Part shown: piece after piece, positions 10,561 through 24,829 of the stretch
Position numbering within the stretch: the first letter of the stretch is position 1
Layout of the letters: the number at the start of each line of letters is the position of its first letter
Origin: Rhodospirillales bacterium
GTDB taxonomy: Bacteria; Pseudomonadota; Alphaproteobacteria; SP197
Direction of reading: 5' to 3'
Assembly (NCBI GenBank): GCA_014323865.1
Contig: JACONG010000004.1
Location: 27,325 to 91,324, forward strand
DNA length: 64,000 nucleotides
The notes under the pieces: model-generated
What the model saw: the letters and a program-made list of their open reading frames with translations, nothing else
Database searches by the model: none
Told to the model about the DNA's origin: nothing
Position numbers and translations under genes: made by a program

Positions 10561-11238
10561 ATGGCCTACGTCAGGCCGGCGCACAGAGCCGACGCCTTCA
10601 ACTGTCCCTACTGCGGTACTTATGCCGTGATGCACTGGCGCTACCACATTGGGACGGCCCGGGAGGATGGTTGTGAACAAGCTAAGGTGTTTTGGCTCCC
10701 GATCGAGGAGCCTGACTTCGACAATCTCCAGGATCTAGAGACCTCGACCTGCAATCGGTGCAAAGGAATCGCTGTCTGGCACAACGGCGAGATGGTCGAG
10801 CCGCTCGGCGTCTCTGCACCGCCCGCCCATAGGTCGTTGCCGGCTGATTGCCGGGATGACTATGCCGAGGCCCGAGCGATCCTTGAGCGATCGCCGAAGG
10901 GTGCCGCCGCGATGCTTCGTCTGGTGGTGCAGAAGCTCTGTGTGCATCTCGGCGAAGAAGGCAAGAACATCAATCACGACATCGGCGAGCTGGTGAAGAA
11001 GGGTCTGCCCGAAGAGATCCAGATGGCGCTCGATACGGTGCGGGTGGTCGGGAACGATTCCGTCCATCCCGGCCAGATCGATGTACGCGACACGCCGGAG
11101 GTGTGCGCCCGGCTTTTCGAGCTCGTGAACTTCATCGTGCAGCGCATGATACACGAGCCGGCCGAGATCGCGCGGATCTACGGCGCGCTGCCGCCCGACA
11201 AGCGCGCCGGCATCAAGGGCCGAGACGGCAAATCCTGA
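10561..11238 (+). CDS. DUF4145 domain protein (HEPN-like C-terminal domain with N-terminal Cys-rich/zinc-ribbon-like region)
   Basis: ORF 10525..11238 with a start at MAYVRP. CPYCGTY...CNRCKG cysteine pairs, then ...AAAMLRLVVQKLCVHLGEE...ALDTVRVVGNDSVHPGQ, typical of DUF4145. It is on the opposite strand to the prophage fragments and slightly lower in GC. Confidence 0.65.
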   Translation: MAYVRPAHRADAFNCPYCGTYAVMHWRYHIGTAREDGCEQAKVFWLPIEEPDFDNLQDLETSTCNRCKGIAVWHNGEMVEPLGVSAPPAHRSLPADCRDDYAEARAILERSPKGAAAMLRLVVQKLCVHLGEEGKNINHDIGELVKKGLPEEIQMALDTVRVVGNDSVHPGQIDVRDTPEVCARLFELVNFIVQRMIHEPAEIARIYGALPPDKRAGIKGRDGKS

Positions 11239-11386: not shown

Positions 11387-11959
11387 TCATCTCACGCCGA
11401 GGGGCCGGTGTCCCCCTGTCAAGGACGTGAGGAGCAGGCCCGGCGGTCCGGCGTCGGGCCTTTCTTGCGAACGGCGCCAGGCCAGCGTGCCACGCCGGCG
11501 CTTCTCCAGCTCCCGGGACTTGTCCACCTCGAAGGCCGTCACGCCGCGCCAGCCGTCCGGCGCGACATCCATGACAACCGTGAGGCGGGCGTCCTGGCCG
11601 GGAACGGTCCAGTGCGCGACGTGGTGACGCCGAAGCGTCATCTCGCCGCTGCGTTCCTCCCAGACCCACCATATCTCGTCGGGCTGGCGGATCGTGTCGG
11701 CGATGACACGGATGAACTTCTGGCGTCCGCGCTTGTCGACCTTGTAGGGCCCGCCCGGGAAGAGGCGGAAGAAGGCGTCGGTGATCACGACCGGCTCGCC
11801 GATGACGTCCGTGAAGACGACGGGCTTTCCGGGCGCGGCACCGAACTCTTCCAGGAAGGCACCGACGTACTCGGCGTCGGACAGTCCCGAGGCGGGCATG
11901 ATCCGCGAGGCCGGCACCGGCGGCGGGCCCGATATCGGCGGCGGAGTCAGACCGTCCAT
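11387..11959 (-). pseudogene. MuF-like (phage head morphogenesis) N-terminal fragment
   Basis: 190-aa ORF. It is preceded, in the same frame, by RRIPKGIDPGFAYNVG, which continues from the portal-like frame after a frameshift. It is truncated at 11387. Confidence 0.35.
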
Positions 11960-15844: not shown

Positions 15845-16396
15845 CTATGCGTCGTCGGCTGTTGCACGGGCGCGCGCCCGCAGTCCCAGCCCGATCAGCG
15901 CGAGACCGAAGATGGTAATGCCTGTGGGAAGCCAGGCGGCCTCTGCCCGCGCCGCCTTCAGCCCACCGACCGTCTGGTCGATCGAGACCATGGTGCCCTG
16001 TTCGCTTTCGAACTGCCAGACCAGCATACGGTTCATCTCGTCGTCGGCATCGTCCCAGAGATAGTAAGTTGCCGGCAGTTGCTCGGTGACGCTCGCCCGG
16101 ACCACATCGTAGCCCGGCATGGAGTTGAGATAGAGCACCACCCGTTCGCCGGGATCGAGAGCAATATGAAGCTCCATGGTGTCGTGCTGCAGGAAGCGCA
16201 GCACCGCGCCGCGCCGTTTGTGCACCTCGCGCGCGTCGATCGGTTCGCCCGCGAACGGAACGAGTTCTCCCAGTTCGGGATAGTCGTGACGCCACGGCTC
16301 CCAGGCGAACCAGGCACCGATCCCGGTCAGAATCACGCCGGCCACCAGCGTCGCGGGAAGATGGCGTTGCAGGCTGCTGGCGAACCGTCCGATCAC
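15845..16396 (-). CDS. Membrane protein with one TM helix at each end (DUF3592-like topology)
   Basis: 183 aa. N-terminal TM LPATLVAGVILTGIGAWFAW and C-terminal TM LPTGITIFGLALIGLGL flank a soluble domain. Confidence 0.4.
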   Translation of the reverse strand: MIGRFASSLQRHLPATLVAGVILTGIGAWFAWEPWRHDYPELGELVPFAGEPIDAREVHKRRGAVLRFLQHDTMELHIALDPGERVVLYLNSMPGYDVVRASVTEQLPATYYLWDDADDEMNRMLVWQFESEQGTMVSIDQTVGGLKAARAEAAWLPTGITIFGLALIGLGLRARARATADDA

Positions 16397-16466: not shown

Positions 16467-17831
16467 TCACCCGCGCAGCTTCGGTTCGGCGGCGTCGAGT
16501 GCCGCGGTCAGGGCGTCGATCATCTCGTCGACGTCGCCCCGCGTCATGATGAGCGGCGGAGACATCACCATGGAGTCACCCGTGGCGCGGACAAGCAGGC
16601 CGCGCTGCCAGGCCTCTTCACGCACGACGTAGCCGGCTCTCTTGTCGGTGTCGAAGCCCTGACGCGTGGCCTTGTCTCCGACCACCTCGACCGCAGCCAT
16701 CATGCCGCGGCCGCGCACTTCGCCAACCAGCGGGTGGTCGGCCAGCGCATGCAGGCGCTCCTGGAAGTAGGGACCGATGTCGGACCCCGCATGCTCCACG
16801 ATCCTCTCGCGCTGCAGGATGTTGATGTTCTCGAGCGCCACGGCTGCCGCGACCGGATGGCCGGAATAGGTGAAGCCGGTCTGGCTGTCGCCGCCCATCT
16901 CCTCGAGCACATCGGCCACGCGGTCATGAACCATCAGGCCCGAGATCGGCTGGTAGCCCGAGCTCAGTCCCTTGGCGATGGTCATGAAGTCGGGGTCGAT
17001 CTTGAACTGCTCAGAGGCAAACCAGGTGCCGGTGCGTCCGAAGCCGCAGATCACCTCGTCGGCGATCAGCAGCACGTTGTGCTCGCGGCAGATGCGCTGC
17101 ACCTCGGGCCAGTAGCTCTCCGGCGGCACCAGCACGCCGCCTGCGCCCATGATCGGCTCGCCGATGAAGGCACCGACATTCTCCGCGCCCAGCGCCAGGA
17201 TCATGTTCTCGACCGAACGCGCCGCCTGGATGCCGAACTCCTCGGGGTCCATGTCGCCGCCGAAGCGATACCAGTGCGGACAGTCGGCGTGCACGAAACC
17301 CTGCAGCGGCAGGTCGTAATGCGGGTGCATGGAGCTCAGACCGCACAGGCTCGCGGCCACCATGGTCGCACCATGATAGGCGTTCTTGCGGCTGATGATC
17401 GTCTTCTTGGTTTTCTCGCCCCGGGTGTTCCAGTACCAGCGCACGAGCTTGCAGATCGTGTCGTTGGCGTCCGACCCGGTGTTGCCGAAAAAGACCTGGT
17501 TGAGCCCGTCGGGCGTCACGTCGGCCAGCTTGGCGGCGAGCTCCGTGGTGGGCTGCGTCGTCGTGTGGAAGAAGGTGTTGTAGTAGGGAAGCTCAAGCAT
17601 CTGCTTGTAGGCCACCTCGGCCAGTTCCTTGCGGCCGTAGCCGATGTTGACGCACCACAGGCCTGCCATGCCGTCAAGCACGCGGTGGCCCTCGGTGGTC
17701 CACATGTGGACGCCCTCGGCACGTTCGATGACGCGGACGCCCTTGCCGTTGAGCTCCTTGGCGTCGGTGAAGGGATGCAGATGATGCTGGCGGTCCATGT
17801 CCTGCAGGACCGCGGTCAGGTTCGAGACCAT
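16467..17831 (-). CDS. Class-III (omega) aminotransferase, PLP-dependent
   Basis: 454 aa. Motifs FFGNTGSDANDTICKLVRWY, LLIADEVICGFGRTG and TIAKGLSSGYQPISG (Lys) are diagnostic for the AT-III family. Confidence 0.85.
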   Translation of the reverse strand: MVSNLTAVLQDMDRQHHLHPFTDAKELNGKGVRVIERAEGVHMWTTEGHRVLDGMAGLWCVNIGYGRKELAEVAYKQMLELPYYNTFFHTTTQPTTELAAKLADVTPDGLNQVFFGNTGSDANDTICKLVRWYWNTRGEKTKKTIISRKNAYHGATMVAASLCGLSSMHPHYDLPLQGFVHADCPHWYRFGGDMDPEEFGIQAARSVENMILALGAENVGAFIGEPIMGAGGVLVPPESYWPEVQRICREHNVLLIADEVICGFGRTGTWFASEQFKIDPDFMTIAKGLSSGYQPISGLMVHDRVADVLEEMGGDSQTGFTYSGHPVAAAVALENINILQRERIVEHAGSDIGPYFQERLHALADHPLVGEVRGRGMMAAVEVVGDKATRQGFDTDKRAGYVVREEAWQRGLLVRATGDSMVMSPPLIMTRGDVDEMIDALTAALDAAEPKLRG

Positions 17832-18241
17832 GATGGGGCTCTCCGAAGATAGAGTGTGTCGTGATATGTGAGTGCCGCTCGAACGGCTGGCGGCCCGCCT
17901 CCGGAAACGGGTCGCGGCCTAAGGGTCGAAGTCGATCCGGGCGCATTGCACAAGGAGTTCCTTGTGGCGCGACAGATCGGTGACGTCATGCAGGCGCGGT
18001 GTCATGCGCCGGAGTTTACAGCAGACGGGCAGGACGAATCGAGAGGGTGCTGACAGCCGCGGTGAACCGGTCAGACGTGTTCCTTCGGGCCCACCAGATG
18101 CCGAACTTCGAGCGGGTTCTCACCGCGATGGAAGGCCCGGGCCGCTTCCTGGAGCGTGCGGTCGGCTTCGGTGACACGTTCTTGCTGGCGCAGGTGTCCG
18201 GCGCCTCGGTGTCCTCGAAGACGCGCCAATCGAAGGCACCG

Positions 18242-18650
18242 TCACGGTGGCGTTCCTGGAAGAGGCGTTGAGCGCATCGAGGAGACCTCGGTGTCGGCTT
18301 CGTCCACCCGGCAGATCGACATCGGCCCCAAGCGCACCATATGTGCCCGCGAAGAAGTGGAGCACCTGTGGCTTTTGGACCCGGATGCTGGGGTCGTTCC
18401 GGCTGTATGAGGAACAATGGCTCCCGATCGCCTCGTTGGTCGGTGACGCCATTCCATACTGAGGCGACCACTGATCTGCTCCGGACTCCAGCCTTCACTC
18501 AACTTCGCACCGACCACATGACACAACTCCGGCGCCATCTTTCTCGGAACCGGGGAGGCGTCCCTGCGGCGCTTATCTGCCGGGGCCTGCGCCGACAATG
18601 ACGACACGACAACATGTTTCAGCGGCGGATATGACATGCGGCAGGCCTTT
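18242..18650 (-). pseudogene. IS30-family transposase remnant (N-terminal HTH region only, frames scrambled downstream)
   Basis: A minus-strand frame gives ...RKMAPELCHVVGAKLSEGWSPEQISGRL, the conserved GWSP-QIAGRL block of IS30 transposases. No intact DDE domain was found in any frame. Confidence 0.35.
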
Positions 18651-18746
18651 GGGCGTGGCTTGAAAATGCGAAGAGGTCTGCATAATCTCAGCAGCAGATG
18701 AACCGATGACGTTGACGGACGAAAGTGCAAGTGGAGTGGTGACCAT

Positions 18747-21500
18747 ATGACCGCGGACATACCTCAAGCCTCTTCCGCGGACAAAACGTCCGCCGAAACA
18801 AACAAGACCGACCTCCCTTCTGTCAGCCTCCAAATTGAAATGTCTAAGAGGGTGAACTTCGCCTCGGCACAAAATGATGTTCCTGTTCTCAAGAAGCTGT
18901 TGGTGACCAATAACACCGAAAGCGCGTTGGACAACATAAAAATTACCCTGACCGTGCAGCCAGAGATAATAAAGTCGAAAACCTGGATCATAGATGGATT
19001 GCTCTCGACGGGCAGTATTGAACTCGGTGATCTTTCAACGTCTCTGGACGTTCAAAAATTGAAGGGTCTCAATGAAACCGAAATCGGGCTTTTGACCCTG
19101 ACGGTCTCAACTGACGACGGGCCGCTGGCGTCTGAGACCCTGCGCCTGGAACTGCTGGCCCGCGATCAATGGGGCGGTCTGGATGACATGGACCGGTTAC
19201 TGGCGGCCTTTGTGTCTCCGAACGATCCGGTGGTAGCGGTAATCCTCAAGGAGGCTTCGCTGTTGCTGGAATGCAGCGGGTATGATGGCTCGCTTGAGGG
19301 GTATCAAAACGGTGACCCGCAACGCGCCTGGATGATCGCCGGCGCAATTTGGTCGGCCGTGACCGGTATGGGGCTGACCTATGCCAACCCGCCTGCATCC
19401 TTCGAGGTCGAGGGTCAGAAAATCCGCTCGCCCGAGCGTATTCGCCGCGAAGGGCTTGCCACTTGCCTGGACAGCTCTCTTCTGTTGGCGGCGGCATGGG
19501 AACAGGCCGGGTTGCATCCGGTTATCCTGTTCAGTCACCGCCACGCTTGGGCGGGAGTCTGGATCACCAAGCGGGATTTCGGGCATGTGACCGAGCCCGA
19601 CGTGGTCACCGTGCGCAAGGCAGCGCAGGCCAAAGAGTTCATTCCGGTCGAAACCACACTGTTGACCCAACGCCCAACCGCCGGCTTCGAACAGGCGGTT
19701 GAGGCCGGACGGGCCCGTCTGTCGGAGGACCGAGAACAAGAATTCCTGATGGCTATCGATATCACCCGTGCGCGCTCTGCCCGTATACGCCCGCTGGCCA
19801 GCCATGTGGAGGCTGAGGGCGTTGCGGTCGGGCATGTCGAGGCGACTCCGGCAAAACTACCGGACCCAATCGACTTTGGCCTGCTACCCTCGGAAGTGAT
19901 CGAGCAAGTGCCGGACACTCCCAAAGGGCGGATCGACCGCTGGCAAGCAAAGCTGCTGGACCTGTCGTTGCGCAACCGGCTGTTGAACTTCAAGCCAGGC
20001 AAACAGACAGTGCCCTGCCTGGTGCCCGATGTCGGTACATTGGAAGACGCTTTAGCGGCGGAAAAAGCGTTTCGCGCCTATCCGTTGACGGAGGACGATC
20101 CCTTTCGTGAGCGTCAGCTGTCGCTGGAGGAACGGAACGCGATCATAAGTCGTGTGACCCAGGATGCGTTCAACCGGGGCCAGATCACGGTGCCTCTGGA
20201 TCGCAAGGATACCAACAACCGCTTGCTGGCCCTTTTTCGCAAAGCAAAGAGCGATCTTCAGGAAGGCGGTACCAACACACTTTTTCTGGCGGCAGGGTTC
20301 CTGCGATGGCAACGAGAAGGCGACAAGCGCAGCTACCGCGCCCCGCTTTTACTGATCCCGATCCGGCTGGAACGCAAATCGGCGCGGTCGGATTTTCAAA
20401 TCCTGCATCACGAGGACGAAATTCGGTTCAACTTGACCCTGCTGGAACTTCTCAAGCGTGATTTTGATCTGAACCTGCCGGAGCTTGAGGGCGAATTGCC
20501 CCGCGACGACAGCGGCATCGACCTGCCACGCATCTTTGAACGGATGCGCGCGCAGGTGCGGGATGTGCCGGGGTTTGAAGTTGTGGAAGAGATCGCGATT
20601 TCGACCTTTTCCTTTTCGAAATACCTGATGTGGAAGGATTTGGTCGACCGGACCGATCAGCTGCGAAACAACCGGCTGGTGGCCCATCTGGTCGACAATC
20701 CGGACAAGACCTTCCCCGGCGCGGAAGTGGAGTGGATTCCGGTCGAAGAGATGGACCGCCGTCTTGCGCCCAGGGATTTGGTCACGCCTCTGCCCGCTGA
20801 CAGCTCGCAATTGTCAGCAGTCGTCGCCTCGGCAGAGGGGCGGGATTTCGTATTGATTGGCCCACCCGGCACCGGCAAAAGCCAGACGATTGCCAATATC
20901 ATCTGCCAGTGTCTTGCCCATGGCAAAACGGTGCTGTTCGTGGCCGAGAAAGCCGCGGCTCTGGACGTGGTCCAGCGCAGGCTTGAGGCGCATGGGTTGG
21001 GGGATGCGGTGCTGGAGTTGCATTCCAACAAGGCCGACCGCAAGCGGGTTCTGACCCAGCTTGGCAGGGGATGGGACAGGGCCTCGGCCACCAGCCAACA
21101 GAGCGAACGGGACTGGCTGGATATCACCGGGAAGCTGCGGATCAGGCGCGACCGGCTCAACGCCTATGTGGAGGCGCTTCATGCCAGGGGCGCGCAGGGG
21201 TTTTCGGTCTTTGACGCTATTTCATGGACGGCAGAAGAACCAAAGGGGCTGAGACTGTCCTTTGCGGACAAGGATGCCCATGACCGGCAGAGCTTTGATC
21301 GGTTGCTTGAAATTACGGAAGAGCTTGGCCGTACCCATGCTGCCGTTGGCGGTGATGCGCCACTGGCGTTGGTGGGAGAAGCCAAATGGTCTTATGCTTG
21401 GGAAGAGCAGTTCGTCGAACGGGCCGAGACGCTCAGGGCGTGTCTCGACCGCGCCATGCAGTCTGGCTCGGATCTTGCCGATCGGTTGGCGTTGACCTAG
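18747..21500 (+). CDS. N-terminal part of a giant DUF4011 / SF1 (Upf1-like, AAA_11) helicase protein; ends at an in-frame TAG
   Basis: 917-aa ORF. The DUF4011-like N-terminal region is followed by Walker A VLIGPPGTGKSQTIANII and ...VLFVAEKAAALDVVQRRL. GC is lower at the 5' end. The TAG at 21498-21500 is in the same frame as the next ORF. Confidence 0.7.
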   Translation: MTADIPQASSADKTSAETNKTDLPSVSLQIEMSKRVNFASAQNDVPVLKKLLVTNNTESALDNIKITLTVQPEIIKSKTWIIDGLLSTGSIELGDLSTSLDVQKLKGLNETEIGLLTLTVSTDDGPLASETLRLELLARDQWGGLDDMDRLLAAFVSPNDPVVAVILKEASLLLECSGYDGSLEGYQNGDPQRAWMIAGAIWSAVTGMGLTYANPPASFEVEGQKIRSPERIRREGLATCLDSSLLLAAAWEQAGLHPVILFSHRHAWAGVWITKRDFGHVTEPDVVTVRKAAQAKEFIPVETTLLTQRPTAGFEQAVEAGRARLSEDREQEFLMAIDITRARSARIRPLASHVEAEGVAVGHVEATPAKLPDPIDFGLLPSEVIEQVPDTPKGRIDRWQAKLLDLSLRNRLLNFKPGKQTVPCLVPDVGTLEDALAAEKAFRAYPLTEDDPFRERQLSLEERNAIISRVTQDAFNRGQITVPLDRKDTNNRLLALFRKAKSDLQEGGTNTLFLAAGFLRWQREGDKRSYRAPLLLIPIRLERKSARSDFQILHHEDEIRFNLTLLELLKRDFDLNLPELEGELPRDDSGIDLPRIFERMRAQVRDVPGFEVVEEIAISTFSFSKYLMWKDLVDRTDQLRNNRLVAHLVDNPDKTFPGAEVEWIPVEEMDRRLAPRDLVTPLPADSSQLSAVVASAEGRDFVLIGPPGTGKSQTIANIICQCLAHGKTVLFVAEKAAALDVVQRRLEAHGLGDAVLELHSNKADRKRVLTQLGRGWDRASATSQQSERDWLDITGKLRIRRDRLNAYVEALHARGAQGFSVFDAISWTAEEPKGLRLSFADKDAHDRQSFDRLLEITEELGRTHAAVGGDAPLALVGEAKWSYAWEEQFVERAETLRACLDRAMQSGSDLADRLALT

Positions 21501-21512
21501 GACCCGAGGCTG

Positions 21513-24038
21513 ATGCCCGAACGGCGCAGTATGTTGACCGAACTGTCCCGTCGCATCGCACAGGACGCGGAAGATTTGCGCATGGTGCCGCACTTGCCGG
21601 ATCGTGACATGAACGCCGAAGTGGACCGGTTCGAGACCGCGCTTGTGGCCTTTCAGGGTGCACAGGACCGGTGCCGCGCAACCTATGCCGAGGACGATCT
21701 GAAACGCCTGCCGCTGGATCAGTTGGATGCGGAATGGCGCGCGAGCGAGGCCGCGTTCTGGCCATTTTCGGCTTTGAAAAGGCGGAAAACTCGCAAGCTC
21801 CTTCAGACCTACGCCGAATCGGGGCAAGTCGAGCCGAGCACGGACCTGCCTGCGATAGAAGAGGCACGCAAACAGTTGACGGTACTGGAGAACAGTCCGG
21901 TTGCCGACGCAGCCGGCGTGGACCGGTCGCTGGACAAACTGAAGTTACGGGTCGCACAGGCGATATCCTTGCGCACCACGCTGGCCGGTTTGCAGTCTGA
22001 AACAGACGATACCGTGGCTTTTGGTGCCACCACTGTCGCTGCGTTGGAGGAAGGGCCAGATGGGGCGTTGCATCAGGCGCTGGAGGACTGGCAGGCGGCG
22101 GACAGCGAATTGAATGCGGCAATCACGGAGTTCATAGGGTCAGGCGGCTGCGTGGATACGGACATGTCCCTGGGCGATCTGCTGGCATCCGTGTCCCAGG
22201 CGCTGGCGCAGCGCGCGCGGCTTGCCGGCTGGACCCGCTGGGTTGCCATTCGGAACAAGGCCAAAGCCGCCGGGTTGACGCCTCTGGTCGCCGCGATCGA
22301 GGCGGATCAGTTGAAAGGCGATCCGGTCCTCGAATGCCGTCGTGCCTACGCCCGCTGGTGGTTGCCATTGGCAATGGATGCCTCCGAGCCGCTGCGCCGG
22401 TTCGCCCATTGGGAGCACGATCATATCGTAGCCGCCTTTCGCAGTCTGGATGACAAGGTTGCCGAACACGCCCCGCGCGAAGTGATGCGGCGTATTCATC
22501 ATCCCCTTCCAGCGCGGGATGCTGTGCCCAGAAAATCGGAATTGGGCGTCTTGCGTCATCAGCTGGGTTTGAAACGTCCGTCAATGGCCATACGACCGTT
22601 GCTGGAGAATTTGGGCGAAGCCCTGCCGAAACTGGCGTCTTGTTTTTTGATGTCGCCGTTGTCGATTGCGCAGTATCTTCCGGCCGGGCAGGCCACGTTC
22701 GACGTTGCGATCTTTGACGAGGCCTCGCAGATCACGACCTGGGACGCCATCGGTTCCATCGCGCGGGCGAAACAATCGATCATTGTCGGTGACCCCAAGC
22801 AGTTGCCACCGACCAATTTCTTCGGTCGCAGCGACGAGAGCGAGGATGAAGCCGAGGGCATGATCGCTGACATGCCTTCGATCCTGGATGAGGTGATGAC
22901 CGCCGGTATCCCCACGCGTAGGCTGAATTGGCACTACCGCAGCCGGGATGAGGCGCTGATCGCGTTCTCGAACCATTTCTATTATGGTGGCAAGCTTGTT
23001 ACCTTTCCCGCCCCTGGCACCGGCAGCAAGGCGGTACAGTTCCACAAGATCGATGGCACTTATGCACGCGGGCAAGGGCGCACCAACGCGGAGGAGGCCA
23101 AGGCGATTGTGGCGCAGATCCGCCAGCGTTTGACCGCATGGCTGGACCGGTCCGAGGAGGACCGACCGACGCTGGGCGTGATCACCTTCAACGTGCAGCA
23201 GAAAGACCTTATCCTTGACCTTCTGGACAAGGTGCGGCGCGACTCGCCCGAGCTTGAGTGGTTCTTTGCAGAAGAGCGTGAAGAACCCGTAATCGTGAAA
23301 AACCTGGAGAATATTCAGGGCGATGAGCGTGACGTGATGCTGTTTTCAATTACTTTCGCGCCAGACCTTGCAGGCAAATTGTCGATGAATTTCGGAGCGC
23401 TGAATGCGGATGGCGGCGAAAAGCGTCTGAATGTTGCGGTCACGAGGGCGCGCCGCGAGTTGCACGTGTTCGCCTCGCTGACTCACGATCAGATTGACCT
23501 GAAGCGCACCCGCGCGACCGGGGTGCGTGATCTGAAGACATTTCTGGACTATGCCGAGCGCGGCCCGGACGCTTTGGCTGCGCGCGATGAAGGATCGCTT
23601 GGACCGGCCGAAAGCCCGTTTGAGGAGGCTGTCGCCGAAGCTTTCCGCGCCAAAGGGTGGGAGGTGCGCACTCAGATCGGCGTCTCGGACTTCCGAATTG
23701 ACCTTGGGATTGTCAATCCCGATCGGGCAGGCGCCTATCTGGCCGGGATCGAATGTGACGGGGCCACTTATCACCGCTCTGCCACGGCGCGGGATCGTGA
23801 CAAGGTGCGGCAGGCAGTGCTGGAAGGTCTGGGTTGGACAATCCTGCGCATCTGGTCGACCGACTGGTTCCGCGCCCCGACTGCGGCGGCCGACCGGTTG
23901 CATCAAAGGTTGGTGGCGTTGCTGGAAAAAGACCGCGCGGTGCGTCAGGAAGCCCGGATCGAGGCCTCGGGAAAAGACCCTGGGGAGGAGGCACAGGCCC
24001 TGCCTGTGCCCGAACCGCCACAGCAGGCAGGACAGTGA
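21513..24038 (+). CDS. C-terminal part of the same helicase: AAA_12 helicase C-domain plus DUF3320 / restriction-endonuclease-like (PD-(D/E)xK, Vsr/DUF559-like) domain
   Basis: 841-aa ORF in the same frame as 18747..21500. Motifs FDVAIFDEASQ, IIVGDPKQLPPT, NWHYRSRDEALIAFSN, then C-terminal GWEVRTQIGVSDFRIDLGIVNP...IECDGATYHRSATARDRDKVRQAVLEGLGWTILRIWSTDW, typical of DUF3320. Confidence 0.7.
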   Translation: MPERRSMLTELSRRIAQDAEDLRMVPHLPDRDMNAEVDRFETALVAFQGAQDRCRATYAEDDLKRLPLDQLDAEWRASEAAFWPFSALKRRKTRKLLQTYAESGQVEPSTDLPAIEEARKQLTVLENSPVADAAGVDRSLDKLKLRVAQAISLRTTLAGLQSETDDTVAFGATTVAALEEGPDGALHQALEDWQAADSELNAAITEFIGSGGCVDTDMSLGDLLASVSQALAQRARLAGWTRWVAIRNKAKAAGLTPLVAAIEADQLKGDPVLECRRAYARWWLPLAMDASEPLRRFAHWEHDHIVAAFRSLDDKVAEHAPREVMRRIHHPLPARDAVPRKSELGVLRHQLGLKRPSMAIRPLLENLGEALPKLASCFLMSPLSIAQYLPAGQATFDVAIFDEASQITTWDAIGSIARAKQSIIVGDPKQLPPTNFFGRSDESEDEAEGMIADMPSILDEVMTAGIPTRRLNWHYRSRDEALIAFSNHFYYGGKLVTFPAPGTGSKAVQFHKIDGTYARGQGRTNAEEAKAIVAQIRQRLTAWLDRSEEDRPTLGVITFNVQQKDLILDLLDKVRRDSPELEWFFAEEREEPVIVKNLENIQGDERDVMLFSITFAPDLAGKLSMNFGALNADGGEKRLNVAVTRARRELHVFASLTHDQIDLKRTRATGVRDLKTFLDYAERGPDALAARDEGSLGPAESPFEEAVAEAFRAKGWEVRTQIGVSDFRIDLGIVNPDRAGAYLAGIECDGATYHRSATARDRDKVRQAVLEGLGWTILRIWSTDWFRAPTAAADRLHQRLVALLEKDRAVRQEARIEASGKDPGEEAQALPVPEPPQQAGQ

Positions 24039-24101
24039 CGTAGCAACCAAATGGCATGGAGCGTTCCGGTTGGAAGCTCCATGGCCTGGTCGTTCAGGGC
24101 G

Positions 24102-24536
24102 TCAAACGCCAGCCTCCTGCCGGTGCGTCATGCCGTTCGGGACGGGCACGGTCTTCTCTCTCGCGAGCGCGCGATGGGCCTGGTCGTAGTGTCGCGGAAG
24201 GATGTGCTTGCGTACGATGGCACAGGCATAGGCCAGCACCGAGGCGTCATCAAGAAACCCGGCACCCATCAGAACGTCGGGGACGACATCGGCCGGCATG
24301 ATGAAATAGACCAGGGCGGCGATCAGGATGGCCTTGGCGCTCAGCGGGGTCCTGGGATCGAAGGCGGCGTAGTAGGCCGCCACCAGATCGTCGACAAACG
24401 GCAGCCGTCCAGTGTTGCGGCGCAGCTTGCGCCAAAATCCGTTCTGCACGCGGACCTCATCGGCCTCCCGGTCCTTGCGGCTTTCGGTCCGTTTTCGCAA
24501 CCAGGTGCGGGGGGCGATCATGCTCGTGCCCTTCAT
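24102..24536 (-). CDS. DUF1232 (YkvA-like) membrane protein
   Basis: 144 aa. ...RLPFVDDLVAAYYAAFDPRTPLSAKAILIAALVYFIMPADVVPDVLMGAGFLDDASVL is the characteristic DUF1232 core. Confidence 0.65.
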   Translation of the reverse strand: MKGTSMIAPRTWLRKRTESRKDREADEVRVQNGFWRKLRRNTGRLPFVDDLVAAYYAAFDPRTPLSAKAILIAALVYFIMPADVVPDVLMGAGFLDDASVLAYACAIVRKHILPRHYDQAHRALAREKTVPVPNGMTHRQEAGV

Positions 24537-24829
24537 TTCCTGGCCGCCCGATCCATGAAGCGCGCCATGGCGATGTCGCGTTGCGACAGGCCGTCGACGT
24601 CATGGCTTGTCAGAGTCACCTCGACCCGGCCATAGACGTTGAACCATTCGGGGTGATGGTCGACAACGTCGGCATAGACCGCAACGCGGCCCATGAAAGC
24701 GAACGCGCCCATGAAATCGTCGAACCTGAACGTCTTGCAGATCGCCTCGCGCCCGTCGACCAGCGACCAGCCGTCCAGCGTGGCGAGCGCAGCATCGCGC
24801 GCGTCCTCATCGAGCTTCTGCCCCAACAG
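24533..24829 (-). CDS. phhB: Pterin-4a-carbinolamine dehydratase (PCD/PhhB)
   Basis: The C-terminal 98 aa of ORF 24533..25255: ...ATLDGWSLVDGREAICKTFRFDDFMGAFAFMGRVAVYADVVDHHPEWFNVYGRVEVTLTSHDVDGLSQRDIAMARFMD is a near-canonical PCD. No ATG is present, so a TTG/CTG start near 24826-24829 is assumed. Confidence 0.65.
   Translation of the reverse strand: MLGQKLDEDARDAALATLDGWSLVDGREAICKTFRFDDFMGAFAFMGRVAVYADVVDHHPEWFNVYGRVEVTLTSHDVDGLSQRDIAMARFMDRAARK

Follow-up and report, generated by a model that had tools for sequence, protein, structure and literature searches.

Positions 18747-24038 of the window (the whole stretch of DNA analysed, 64,000 nt from a Rhodospirillales bacterium) carry a single large gene divided by an in-frame TAG codon. 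We characterized it as a gene of the ProA family that was probably acquired horizontally and then recently inactivated by the TAG and by a truncation of its 3′ end, so that it is most likely non-functional. Coordinates of the features discussed below are collected in Table 1.

Table 1. Features of the interrupted ProA-family gene and of its upstream flank (coordinates in the window; aa, residues of the repaired protein)
Feature	Position	Strand	Evidence or remark
Non-syntenic spacer from the conserved aminotransferase promoter region to the ProA start	18045..18746	.	Synteny with related MAGs stops near 18045
Possible decayed IS30-family transposase fragment, ~50 aa, ‘WSPEQISGRL’	18443..18601	-	NF033563
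5′ ORF, 917 aa: N-terminal domains, DUF4011, start of helicase lobe 1 with Walker A	18747..21500	+	NF058533 positions 1-883, 988 bits
Ig-like beta-sandwich, predicted, aa ~25-136	18819..19154	+	AF2 model, pLDDT 80; Foldseek
Transglutaminase-like alpha/beta core, predicted, aa ~150-345	19194..19781	+	AF2 model, Foldseek
DUF4011, aa 402-569	19950..20453	+	Pfam PF13195, 150.5 bits, E = 5e-44
Walker A / helicase motif I GPPGTGKS, aa 705-712	20859..20882	+	AAA_11 match aa 685-754
In-frame TAG, codon 918	21498..21500	+	In the poorly conserved ~600-aa insertion between helicase motifs I and II
3′ ORF, 841 aa: remaining insertion, helicase motifs II-VI, Vsr-like nuclease	21513..24038	+	NF058533 positions 893-1725, 965 bits
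Motif II DEAS to AAA_12 / lobe 2 (VGDPKQLPP, QGDERD, VAVTRAR)	22689..23474	+	Pfam, motif scan
MTES_1575 Vsr-fold restriction-endonuclease-like domain	23619..23912	+	PF18741, 120.1 bits against a cut-off of 38.2
Breakpoint; last codons and TGA stop from unrelated sequence, DUF3320 tail (~190 aa) missing	24024..24038	+	

The two ORFs share one frame, with the TAG plus 12 nt between them (GAC CCG AGG CTG, followed by the ATG at 21513), and in the translation of the entire interval codon 918 was the sole internal stop. Twelve homologs (1751-2008 aa) aligned across the junction without a gap or a lost residue. The preliminary description of this DNA had claimed a single in-frame TAG between collinear halves and had named such an alignment as the check; the translation and the alignment both bore the claim out. 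In the column of the stop the aligned homologs had P, S, Q, Q, P and similar residues, with a sense codon in 12 out of 12. At the DNA level, two intact relatives had CAA at this place and the closest relative had CCG. A nonsense change in a Gln codon is therefore the best explanation of the TAG.

It could be argued that the organism has an intact gene and that the TAG arose as an error of sequencing or assembly, or represents a minority variant taken into the consensus. Indeed, a single C-to-T substitution in CAG would produce the lesion, the DNA comes from a metagenome contig and the remaining sequence is undamaged (dN/dS 0.13, zero frameshifts). However, identical 917-aa and 841-aa products also occur in a second deposited assembly, the NCBI MAG that encodes MBC6438973.1 and MBC6438974.1; its contig measures 253 kb and is distinct from that of JGI metagenome 3300017829, which measures 112.7 kb. 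Because of this second assembly the TAG allele is probably real, even if the two assemblies may share the same reads. Consensus substitution errors are also rare, and the changes at conserved sites cluster 3′ of the TAG (see below). We consider an artifact of this kind quite unlikely. A 32-nt query across the junction, in which N stood for the T of the TAG, gave zero matches in a set of metagenome contigs from which the source contig itself was absent. In the deposited annotation the locus is represented by a separate ‘DUF4011 domain-containing protein’ and ‘hypothetical protein’; these two entries ought to be combined into a single one and marked as a disrupted ProA/PDC-S37 defence gene without the DUF3320 tail.

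The model of the ‘anti-phage protein ProA’ in NCBIfam (NF058533) is an equivalog model with a cut-off of 1500 bits. The repaired protein, with the TAG read as Gln, scored 1971 bits in a single stretch (aa 37-1744 aligned to profile positions 1-1725), whereas the halves alone (988 and 965 bits) were both under the cut-off. The halves also matched the PADLOC model PDC-S37 (PDLC05009) collinearly, with 372.7 bits over profile positions 9-529 and 741.1 bits over positions 565-1353. Judged by its sequence, the locus is a stand-alone gene of the ProA family, or PDC-S37 in PADLOC. The ProA protein from Ruegeria (1947 aa, 2065 bits) is 84% identical to the repaired protein and has the same domain order and stand-alone arrangement; the window copy differs from ProA by the TAG, which breaks the otherwise uninterrupted frame, and by the missing profile positions 1726-1903 (DUF3320). 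The layout of PDC-S37 is that of a single gene, with neighbours that vary among five relatives. Metallophos and AAA_27 genes follow ProA in Ruegeria, but they do not stand beside the other homologs and were rejected as conserved partners. The matches to NF058533 and PDC-S37 agree with the initial claim that the gene belongs to a defence-gene family. In the literature searched we found no experimental description of ProA, the anti-phage role of which rests on the NCBIfam name, and the PDC candidates, including PDC-S37, were described there in general terms only.

Every helicase and nuclease motif was present. The helicase motifs are located at aa 705, 1324, 1347, 1524 and 1563 (Walker A, DEAS and motifs III-VI, with DEAS at aa 1324-1327, positions 22716-22727) and, together with the AAA_11 and AAA_12 Pfam matches, identify an Upf1-like SF1 helicase, the core of which is divided by the TAG between motifs I and II. 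Besides MTES_1575, DUF559 gave a weak Pfam match. Out of the architecture proposed in the preliminary description, DUF4011, the Upf1-like SF1 helicase and the Vsr-like PD-(D/E)xK nuclease were recovered by Pfam and by motifs, while DUF3320 was not, as there was no Pfam match to PF11784 in the gene product.

The predicted Ig-like beta-sandwich had Foldseek matches to CARDB, to pilus chaperones and to the N-terminal sandwich of transglutaminase; in Pfam the predicted transglutaminase-like region had no match. In the latter region C240, D242 and D285 are invariant across the ProA family and H266 is nearly invariant. ProA proteins have a conserved N-terminal module, predicted to be Ig-like and transglutaminase-like, with invariant Cys and Asp and a near-invariant His, and this module may aid later mechanistic work on an uncharacterised family.

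Several known systems share parts of this architecture. Hhe (NCBIfam NF042953; PADLOC Hhe) is a single-gene defence that has in common with the window gene DUF4011, the Upf1-like SF1 helicase and the Vsr-like C-terminal nuclease. The helicase-nuclease half aligned with Hhe profile positions 1093-1693; however, identity with Hhe was rejected on the score (791.5 bits against a cut-off of 2000), which makes the two sister families, and the N-terminal 400 aa (Ig-like and transglutaminase-like) aligned to ProA only. MTES_1575 REases have been described as fusion partners of a transglutaminase domain and of winged helices overlapping DUF3320 (Anantharaman et al. 2013, PMC3710099). The window protein shares with such proteins the Vsr-fold MTES_1575 REase, and its predicted transglutaminase-like N-terminal domain fits the theme; on the other hand, no HEPN domain was detected in it and the winged-helix tail is absent from this copy. 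The nearest solved structures by sequence are those of the Upf1-like SF1B helicases IGHMBP2, Sen1 and Dna2. Motifs I-VI are conserved, but these structures were matched very weakly, with E values from 1e-3 to 6e-5, and ProA has the ~600-aa insertion between motifs I and II along with extra sensor and nuclease domains. Nhi (nuclease-helicase immunity) is a stand-alone helicase-nuclease defence protein, a general concept common to the window gene, which was at first compared with it. The comparison did not hold at the family level: domain order and nuclease type differ, and no Nhi model was among the PADLOC matches at E ≤ 0.01, the family being ProA / PDC-S37.

The 3′ end of the gene is truncated. 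The nearest relative is homologous up to 24023, a point inside a linker, 12 nt before the stop codon. DUF3320 (tandem winged helices, ~190 aa) is present in the three closest homologs, and tblastn searches with the DUF3320 tails of two homologs found none anywhere in the window. Relative to the three closest relatives its absence appears to be a second lesion, one that had not been included in the preliminary description. The downstream in-frame ORF 24051-24635 was rejected as a candidate for DUF3320; it had no Pfam match and is antisense of a DUF1232 gene. Since DUF3320 is also absent in ~14% of the top 120 homologs, some of them on Mb-scale contigs, the loss of the tail may be tolerated rather than be damage.

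The gene appears to be foreign and horizontally acquired because its GC3 is 0.70 as compared with 0.85-0.89 in the neighbouring genes; GC3 of the Ruegeria copy is 0.69. Homologous loci in relatives were located on a repABC plasmid, within islands rich in transposases or beside an integrase. Four MAGs share synteny over the left flank, which places the left boundary at ~18045; looking for an empty site, we saw the right flank (DUF1232, pterin dehydratase onward) near the left flank in none of the four. Horizontal acquisition had been claimed earlier, and GC3, the synteny break and the mobile settings of the relatives support it. The low GC of the 5′ end, offered as a sign of acquisition, turned out to be common to most of the compared homologs and therefore is no mark of an insertion edge. 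As for the IS30 remnant reported upstream, a possible fragment was seen, but with a sub-threshold score against NF033563 (21.8 bits with a cut-off of 80, E = 1.3e-4, 50 of 267 profile positions), and tblastn gave no match to it in plasmids. Promoter and terminator scans remained at shuffle level and were uninformative.

The dN/dS value determined against the Ruegeria ortholog was 0.127 (0.133 in the 5′ half and 0.121 in the 3′ half). The 5.3 kb contained neither frameshifts nor additional stops, and the near-invariant columns were changed in 5 cases out of 490, inside the range of intact homologs. Because the rest of the gene is nearly undamaged, the inactivation is most likely recent. These values, along with the intact state of all catalytic motifs, stand against an old decaying pseudogene remnant without recent function, a reading to which the presence of two lesions (the TAG and the missing DUF3320) and of a possible decayed IS fragment upstream could otherwise point; it is disfavoured and, in our opinion, highly improbable. 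Some relaxation downstream of the TAG is suggested by the columns with conservation of 95% or more among homologs, where we observed 0/288 deviations upstream of the TAG and 7/283 downstream (p = 0.007), and by the non-synonymous excess on the window branch, most of which falls in the 3′ half, with an odds ratio of 2.8 (p = 0.0025). Private substitutions overall were unskewed (33 upstream and 31 downstream of the TAG). The open downstream frame of 841 codons, with no further stop or indel, would be expected if the event was very recent or, alternatively, if selection still acts on the downstream ORF.

One could speculate that the gene works in a split form: translation would stop at the TAG and restart at the ATG 21513, or partially read through, and the 917-aa and 841-aa pieces would associate through the helical insertion to give an active helicase-nuclease. 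The break falls where conservation is low, in the insertion that separates motifs I and II, which is a plausible permissive site, and the downstream frame is fully open, with dN/dS of 0.12 in the 3′ half. The ATG is only 12 nt past the stop; however, this Met codon is inherited, as the intact Ruegeria gene has the same one. It is preceded by GAGG, a sequence peculiar to the window, as relatives show GGAC or GGGC at that place, but the spacing of 3 nt is poor for a Shine-Dalgarno sequence. Furthermore, a naturally split homolog was not encountered, each ORF product forming a singleton cluster, and the changes at conserved sites build up downstream of the TAG. We consider a working split gene unlikely. 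Regulated read-through, suggested previously together with a check for a suppressor tRNA, was not supported either: no tRNA genes, and hence no suppressor, were found in the window, TAG is a normal stop that ends ~10 other ORFs there, and the homologs have a sense codon at this place, as mentioned above. Reassignment of TAG was rejected on account of the same ORFs and the same absence of tRNA in the window. In a more specific version of the split gene, the TAG would have made ProA a two-polypeptide system, in which termination at 21500 is coupled to re-initiation at the ATG via the lineage-specific GAGG, and an N-terminal sensor/Walker-A piece and a C-terminal motor/nuclease piece reassemble across the helical insertion. 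We regard it as very doubtful; if true, it would represent a natural defence helicase split between motifs I and II.

We favour recent inactivation of an acquired gene, which may have proceeded as follows. A marine Rhodospirillales-like alphaproteobacterium would have taken up a ProA gene from a Roseobacter-like gene pool. The intact product would have had, in order, the Ig-like and transglutaminase-like domains, DUF4011, the Upf1-like SF1 helicase with its large helical insertion, the Vsr-fold nuclease and the tandem winged helices (DUF3320); judging from these domains, it would load on foreign nucleic acid, translocate in an ATP-driven manner and cut with the nuclease. With the Gln codon changed to TAG at codon 918, ribosomes would free a 917-aa fragment that keeps Walker A and is devoid of motif II, lobe 2 and the nuclease. 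The 3′ end is also cut at 24023, with loss of the DUF3320 tail. It is because of the released fragment and the 3′ truncation that the gene is most likely non-functional.

The significance of this case beyond annotation is small. It would be a clean case of a recently acquired defence gene that has been switched off, which is the ordinary fate of such genes and fits their rapid gain and loss.

Translation of the segment 18747-24038 gave 1764 codons with a single internal stop, and the coordinates and junction (ADRLALT-stop-DPRLMPERR) of the preliminary description were reproduced exactly. At the DNA level the junction reads TTG ACC TAG GAC CCG AGG CTG ATG CCC. An alignment with 12 homologs crosses it without a gap, confirming the collinearity of the two halves; the stop column is occupied by residues such as P, S, Q, Q and P, and at this position two intact relatives have the codon CAA, Ruegeria CCG. 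Given the gap-free junction and the sense codons in relatives, the two halves belong to one gene with a nonsense change, which would most simply have arisen as CAG to TAG.

Features of the ProA locus and its surroundings
Feature	Position	Strand	Remark
DUF4145 gene	10561-11238	+	
PBECR2 gene	11387-11959	-	phage Barnase-EndoU-ColicinE5/D-RelE-like nuclease
GST, MurJ			left flank
Class-III aminotransferase	16467-17831	-	left flank
IS30-like fragment	18443-18601	-	~50 aa
5' ORF	18747-21500	+	917 aa (ORF listing)
Premature stop TAG	21498-21500	+	codon 918
3' ORF	21513-24038	+	841 aa, same frame as 5' ORF (ORF listing)
DUF1232, pterin-4a-carbinolamine dehydratase, LigT			right flank

Pfam searches confirmed most of the domains expected from the preliminary description: DUF4011 (aa 402-569, 150 bits) and the start of AAA_11 in the 5' ORF product; the end of AAA_11, AAA_12, MTES_1575 REase (120 bits) and a weak DUF559 in the 3' ORF product; DUF3320 was matched in neither. 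The top PADLOC model was PDC-S37, matched collinearly at profile positions 9-529 (373 bits) and 565-1353 (741 bits), with Hhe clearly weaker. The PDC models stand for candidate systems, predicted from their embedding within known defence loci (Payne et al., preprint 10.1101/2024.01.29.577857; 10.1101/2024.09.26.614923). The top NCBIfam model was the equivalog NF058533, 'anti-phage protein ProA', of whose 1903 positions the ORFs cover 1-883 and 893-1725. Once the TAG was translated as Gln, the joined protein scored 1971 bits in one stretch (cut-off 1500). Membership in Hhe was rejected, as the joined protein reached 791 bits versus a cut-off of 2000, and the suggested Nhi-like assignment gave way to ProA/PDC-S37, the gene having no match to Nhi. 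A search of 5.8 billion proteins returned 2611 relatives, the best being a 1947-aa 'DUF3320 domain-containing protein' from Ruegeria sp. HKCCD7559 (84% identity). On these profile matches the gene is a disrupted member of the known ProA family and nothing categorically new; in the literature searched we found no experimental source behind the anti-phage name of NF058533.

The C-terminal DUF3320 that had been described is absent, both by Pfam and by tblastn of the window with the DUF3320 tails of two homologs. The protein ends with PEPPQQAGQ within the variable linker past the nuclease domain, while the three closest homologs run on for ~190 aa through DUF3320. Nucleotide homology to the Ruegeria locus begins at 18746, the base preceding the ATG, and breaks off at 24023; the TGA lies 12 nt farther, within unrelated sequence. 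An in-frame ORF at 24051-24635, considered as a remainder of DUF3320, had no family match and is antisense to the DUF1232 gene. By sequence comparison, absence of the domain is a second lesion beside the TAG. DUF3320 overlaps tandem winged-helix domains located C-terminal to the MTES_1575 Vsr-type REase (Anantharaman et al. 2013, PMC3710099). About 17 of the best 120 homologs (~14%; 2611 relatives in all) also have no DUF3320 (e.g. P0004, P0025, P0030, P0040, P0049, P0062, P0110 and P0111 of our homolog list), some of them on Mb-scale contigs. Since their end points in the linker differ, and since by three-taxon distances the window gene groups with the DUF3320-bearing Ruegeria copy and not with tail-less P0004, the tail is lost recurrently; it may be dispensable and its loss tolerated.

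The gene has no frameshift and no further stop. Comparison with 118 homologs gave 490 columns with at least 97% conservation; the gene departs from the conserved residue at 5 of them, against a median of 3 for intact homologs, 35% of which have at least five such differences. The Nei-Gojobori dN/dS against the Ruegeria ortholog was 0.127 for the whole gene (0.133 for the 5' half, 0.121 for the 3' half). When changes were assigned to branches with the P0004 gene as outgroup, the window branch carried 78 non-synonymous and 199 synonymous changes and the Ruegeria branch 33 and 173 (odds ratio 2.05, p = 0.002); the main share of the excess came from the 3' half (2.8, p = 0.0025), with a weaker one in the 5' half (1.6, p = 0.18). 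At columns at least 95% conserved, a threshold picked after the data were seen, the window gene has no deviation among 288 columns upstream of the TAG but 7 among 283 downstream (p = 0.007), and the closest intact homologs have the opposite pattern or none; three of these changes, P1298S, V1300F and V1321A, lie just ahead of motif II. Lineage-private substitutions, 33 upstream and 31 downstream, are balanced and count against relaxation. We take this to mean that the part downstream of the TAG has been under weaker constraint, but for a short time only; such a pattern speaks against a pure sequencing artefact as well as an old pseudogene. An old relic is very improbable.

A consensus error at the TAG is improbable too. 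Both ORF products are exact singletons in a collection of 15 billion proteins, found in JGI metagenome 3300017829 (contig Ga0189853_1000014, 112.7 kb); they are also found in an NCBI MAG labelled Rhodospirillales bacterium (MBC6438973.1 and MBC6438974.1, 253-kb contig). Thus, the TAG is present in two assemblies, which may share reads. The junction had no match in the metagenome contigs scanned, a set that does not include the source contig.

Could the TAG be used productively? Regulated read-through or a suppressor tRNA, proposed earlier, found no backing: the 64-kb window holds no tRNA gene, TAG is an ordinary stop there (ending ~10 of 45 crude ORFs, including the JGI-called gene 15845-16396), and none of the 12 aligned homologs has a stop at the codon-918 position. 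For a two-piece protein made by re-initiation speaks the ATG at 21513, 12 nt past the stop and preceded 3 nt ahead by GAGG, by its sequence a weak Shine-Dalgarno-like element; this Met, however, is inherited from the intact ancestor, the GAGG-ATG spacing is poor, and nothing positive supports re-initiation. The GAGG (within 21501-21515) is lineage-specific, relatives having GGAC or GGGC. A functional split or read-through is therefore unlikely; the probable interpretation is a ProA/PDC-S37 defence gene that was acquired horizontally and inactivated recently, with a nonsense codon and without its DUF3320 tail.

The flanks of the gene are housekeeping genes. The left one keeps its synteny in four related MAGs of marine alphaproteobacteria (aminotransferase 78-82% identical), with conservation stopping near 18045; the next ~700 nt (within 17832-18746) hold broken ORFs only. 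The right flank, DUF1232 onward, was not nearby in any of the four MAGs; as it never adjoins the aminotransferase in the related genomes retrieved, the locus marks a point of rearrangement rather than a simple insertion. The IS30 remnant noticed earlier would be a fragment among the broken ORFs that scores 21.8 bits against a cut-off of 80, with no tblastn match in plasmids; its assignment is plausible but weak. GC3 is 0.70 in the window gene and 0.69 in the Ruegeria copy, versus 0.89, 0.87, 0.86 and 0.85 in the aminotransferase, GDH, FtsX and MurJ. The first 600 nt do have a lower GC, taken earlier as a sign of acquisition; most homolog loci compared share it (L001 of Ruegeria, L005 and L024; marginal in L025, absent in L027), so it belongs to the gene itself and is no scar of an insertion. 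Relatives occur right after repABC on the Ruegeria plasmid, amid transposases, beside integrase and ParDE, or among chromosomal housekeeping genes, and no conserved partner gene was seen in the neighbourhoods compared, which matches a mobile single-gene system.

On the Ruegeria plasmid contig (L001, 6329-25844) the closest intact ProA stands directly behind repA/repB/repC, its end overlapped by 23 nt by a Metallophos (SbcD-like) gene. Next come a 1144-aa AAA_27 (SbcC-like) gene and, in convergent orientation, a DEAD+UvrD helicase of >1870 aa. The arrangement resembles a defence cluster carried on a plasmid; the Metallophos/AAA_27 pairing was not seen beside the other homologs compared. In the window, the DUF4145 and PBECR2 genes, ~7 kb upstream of ProA between a giant NAD-glutamate dehydrogenase and MurJ and with small hypothetical genes nearby, may form a second small mobile or defence-related islet.

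The nearest solved structures are the Upf1-like helicases IGHMBP2, Sen1 and Dna2, with none closer. An intact ProA would combine an N-terminal sensor or regulatory module and DUF4011 with an ATP-driven SF1 translocase, a Vsr-fold nuclease cutting the tracked nucleic acid and winged helices helping DNA binding. Walker A (aa 705) and DEAS (aa 1324) fall on opposite sides of the stop, which would leave the primary translation product unable to hydrolyse ATP or cleave. The N-terminal 400 aa are Pfam-silent in the family; an AlphaFold model of aa 1-400 (pLDDT 80, pTM 0.74) has an Ig-like sandwich and, after it, an alpha/beta core predicted as transglutaminase-like, the two together spanning aa 25-345 (window 18819-19781). 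Top Foldseek matches include transglutaminases 2 and 3, factor XIII and protein 4.2 (E = 1e-4 to 1e-3, low TM-scores); C240, D242 and D285 are invariant in the family and H266 nearly so. A transglutaminase fusion was noted in the MTES_1575-type protein class (PMC3710099). The finding amounts to an annotation correction, with a side note that the N-terminal module of ProA could be a catalytic or sensor module, unannotated for this family in current domain databases.
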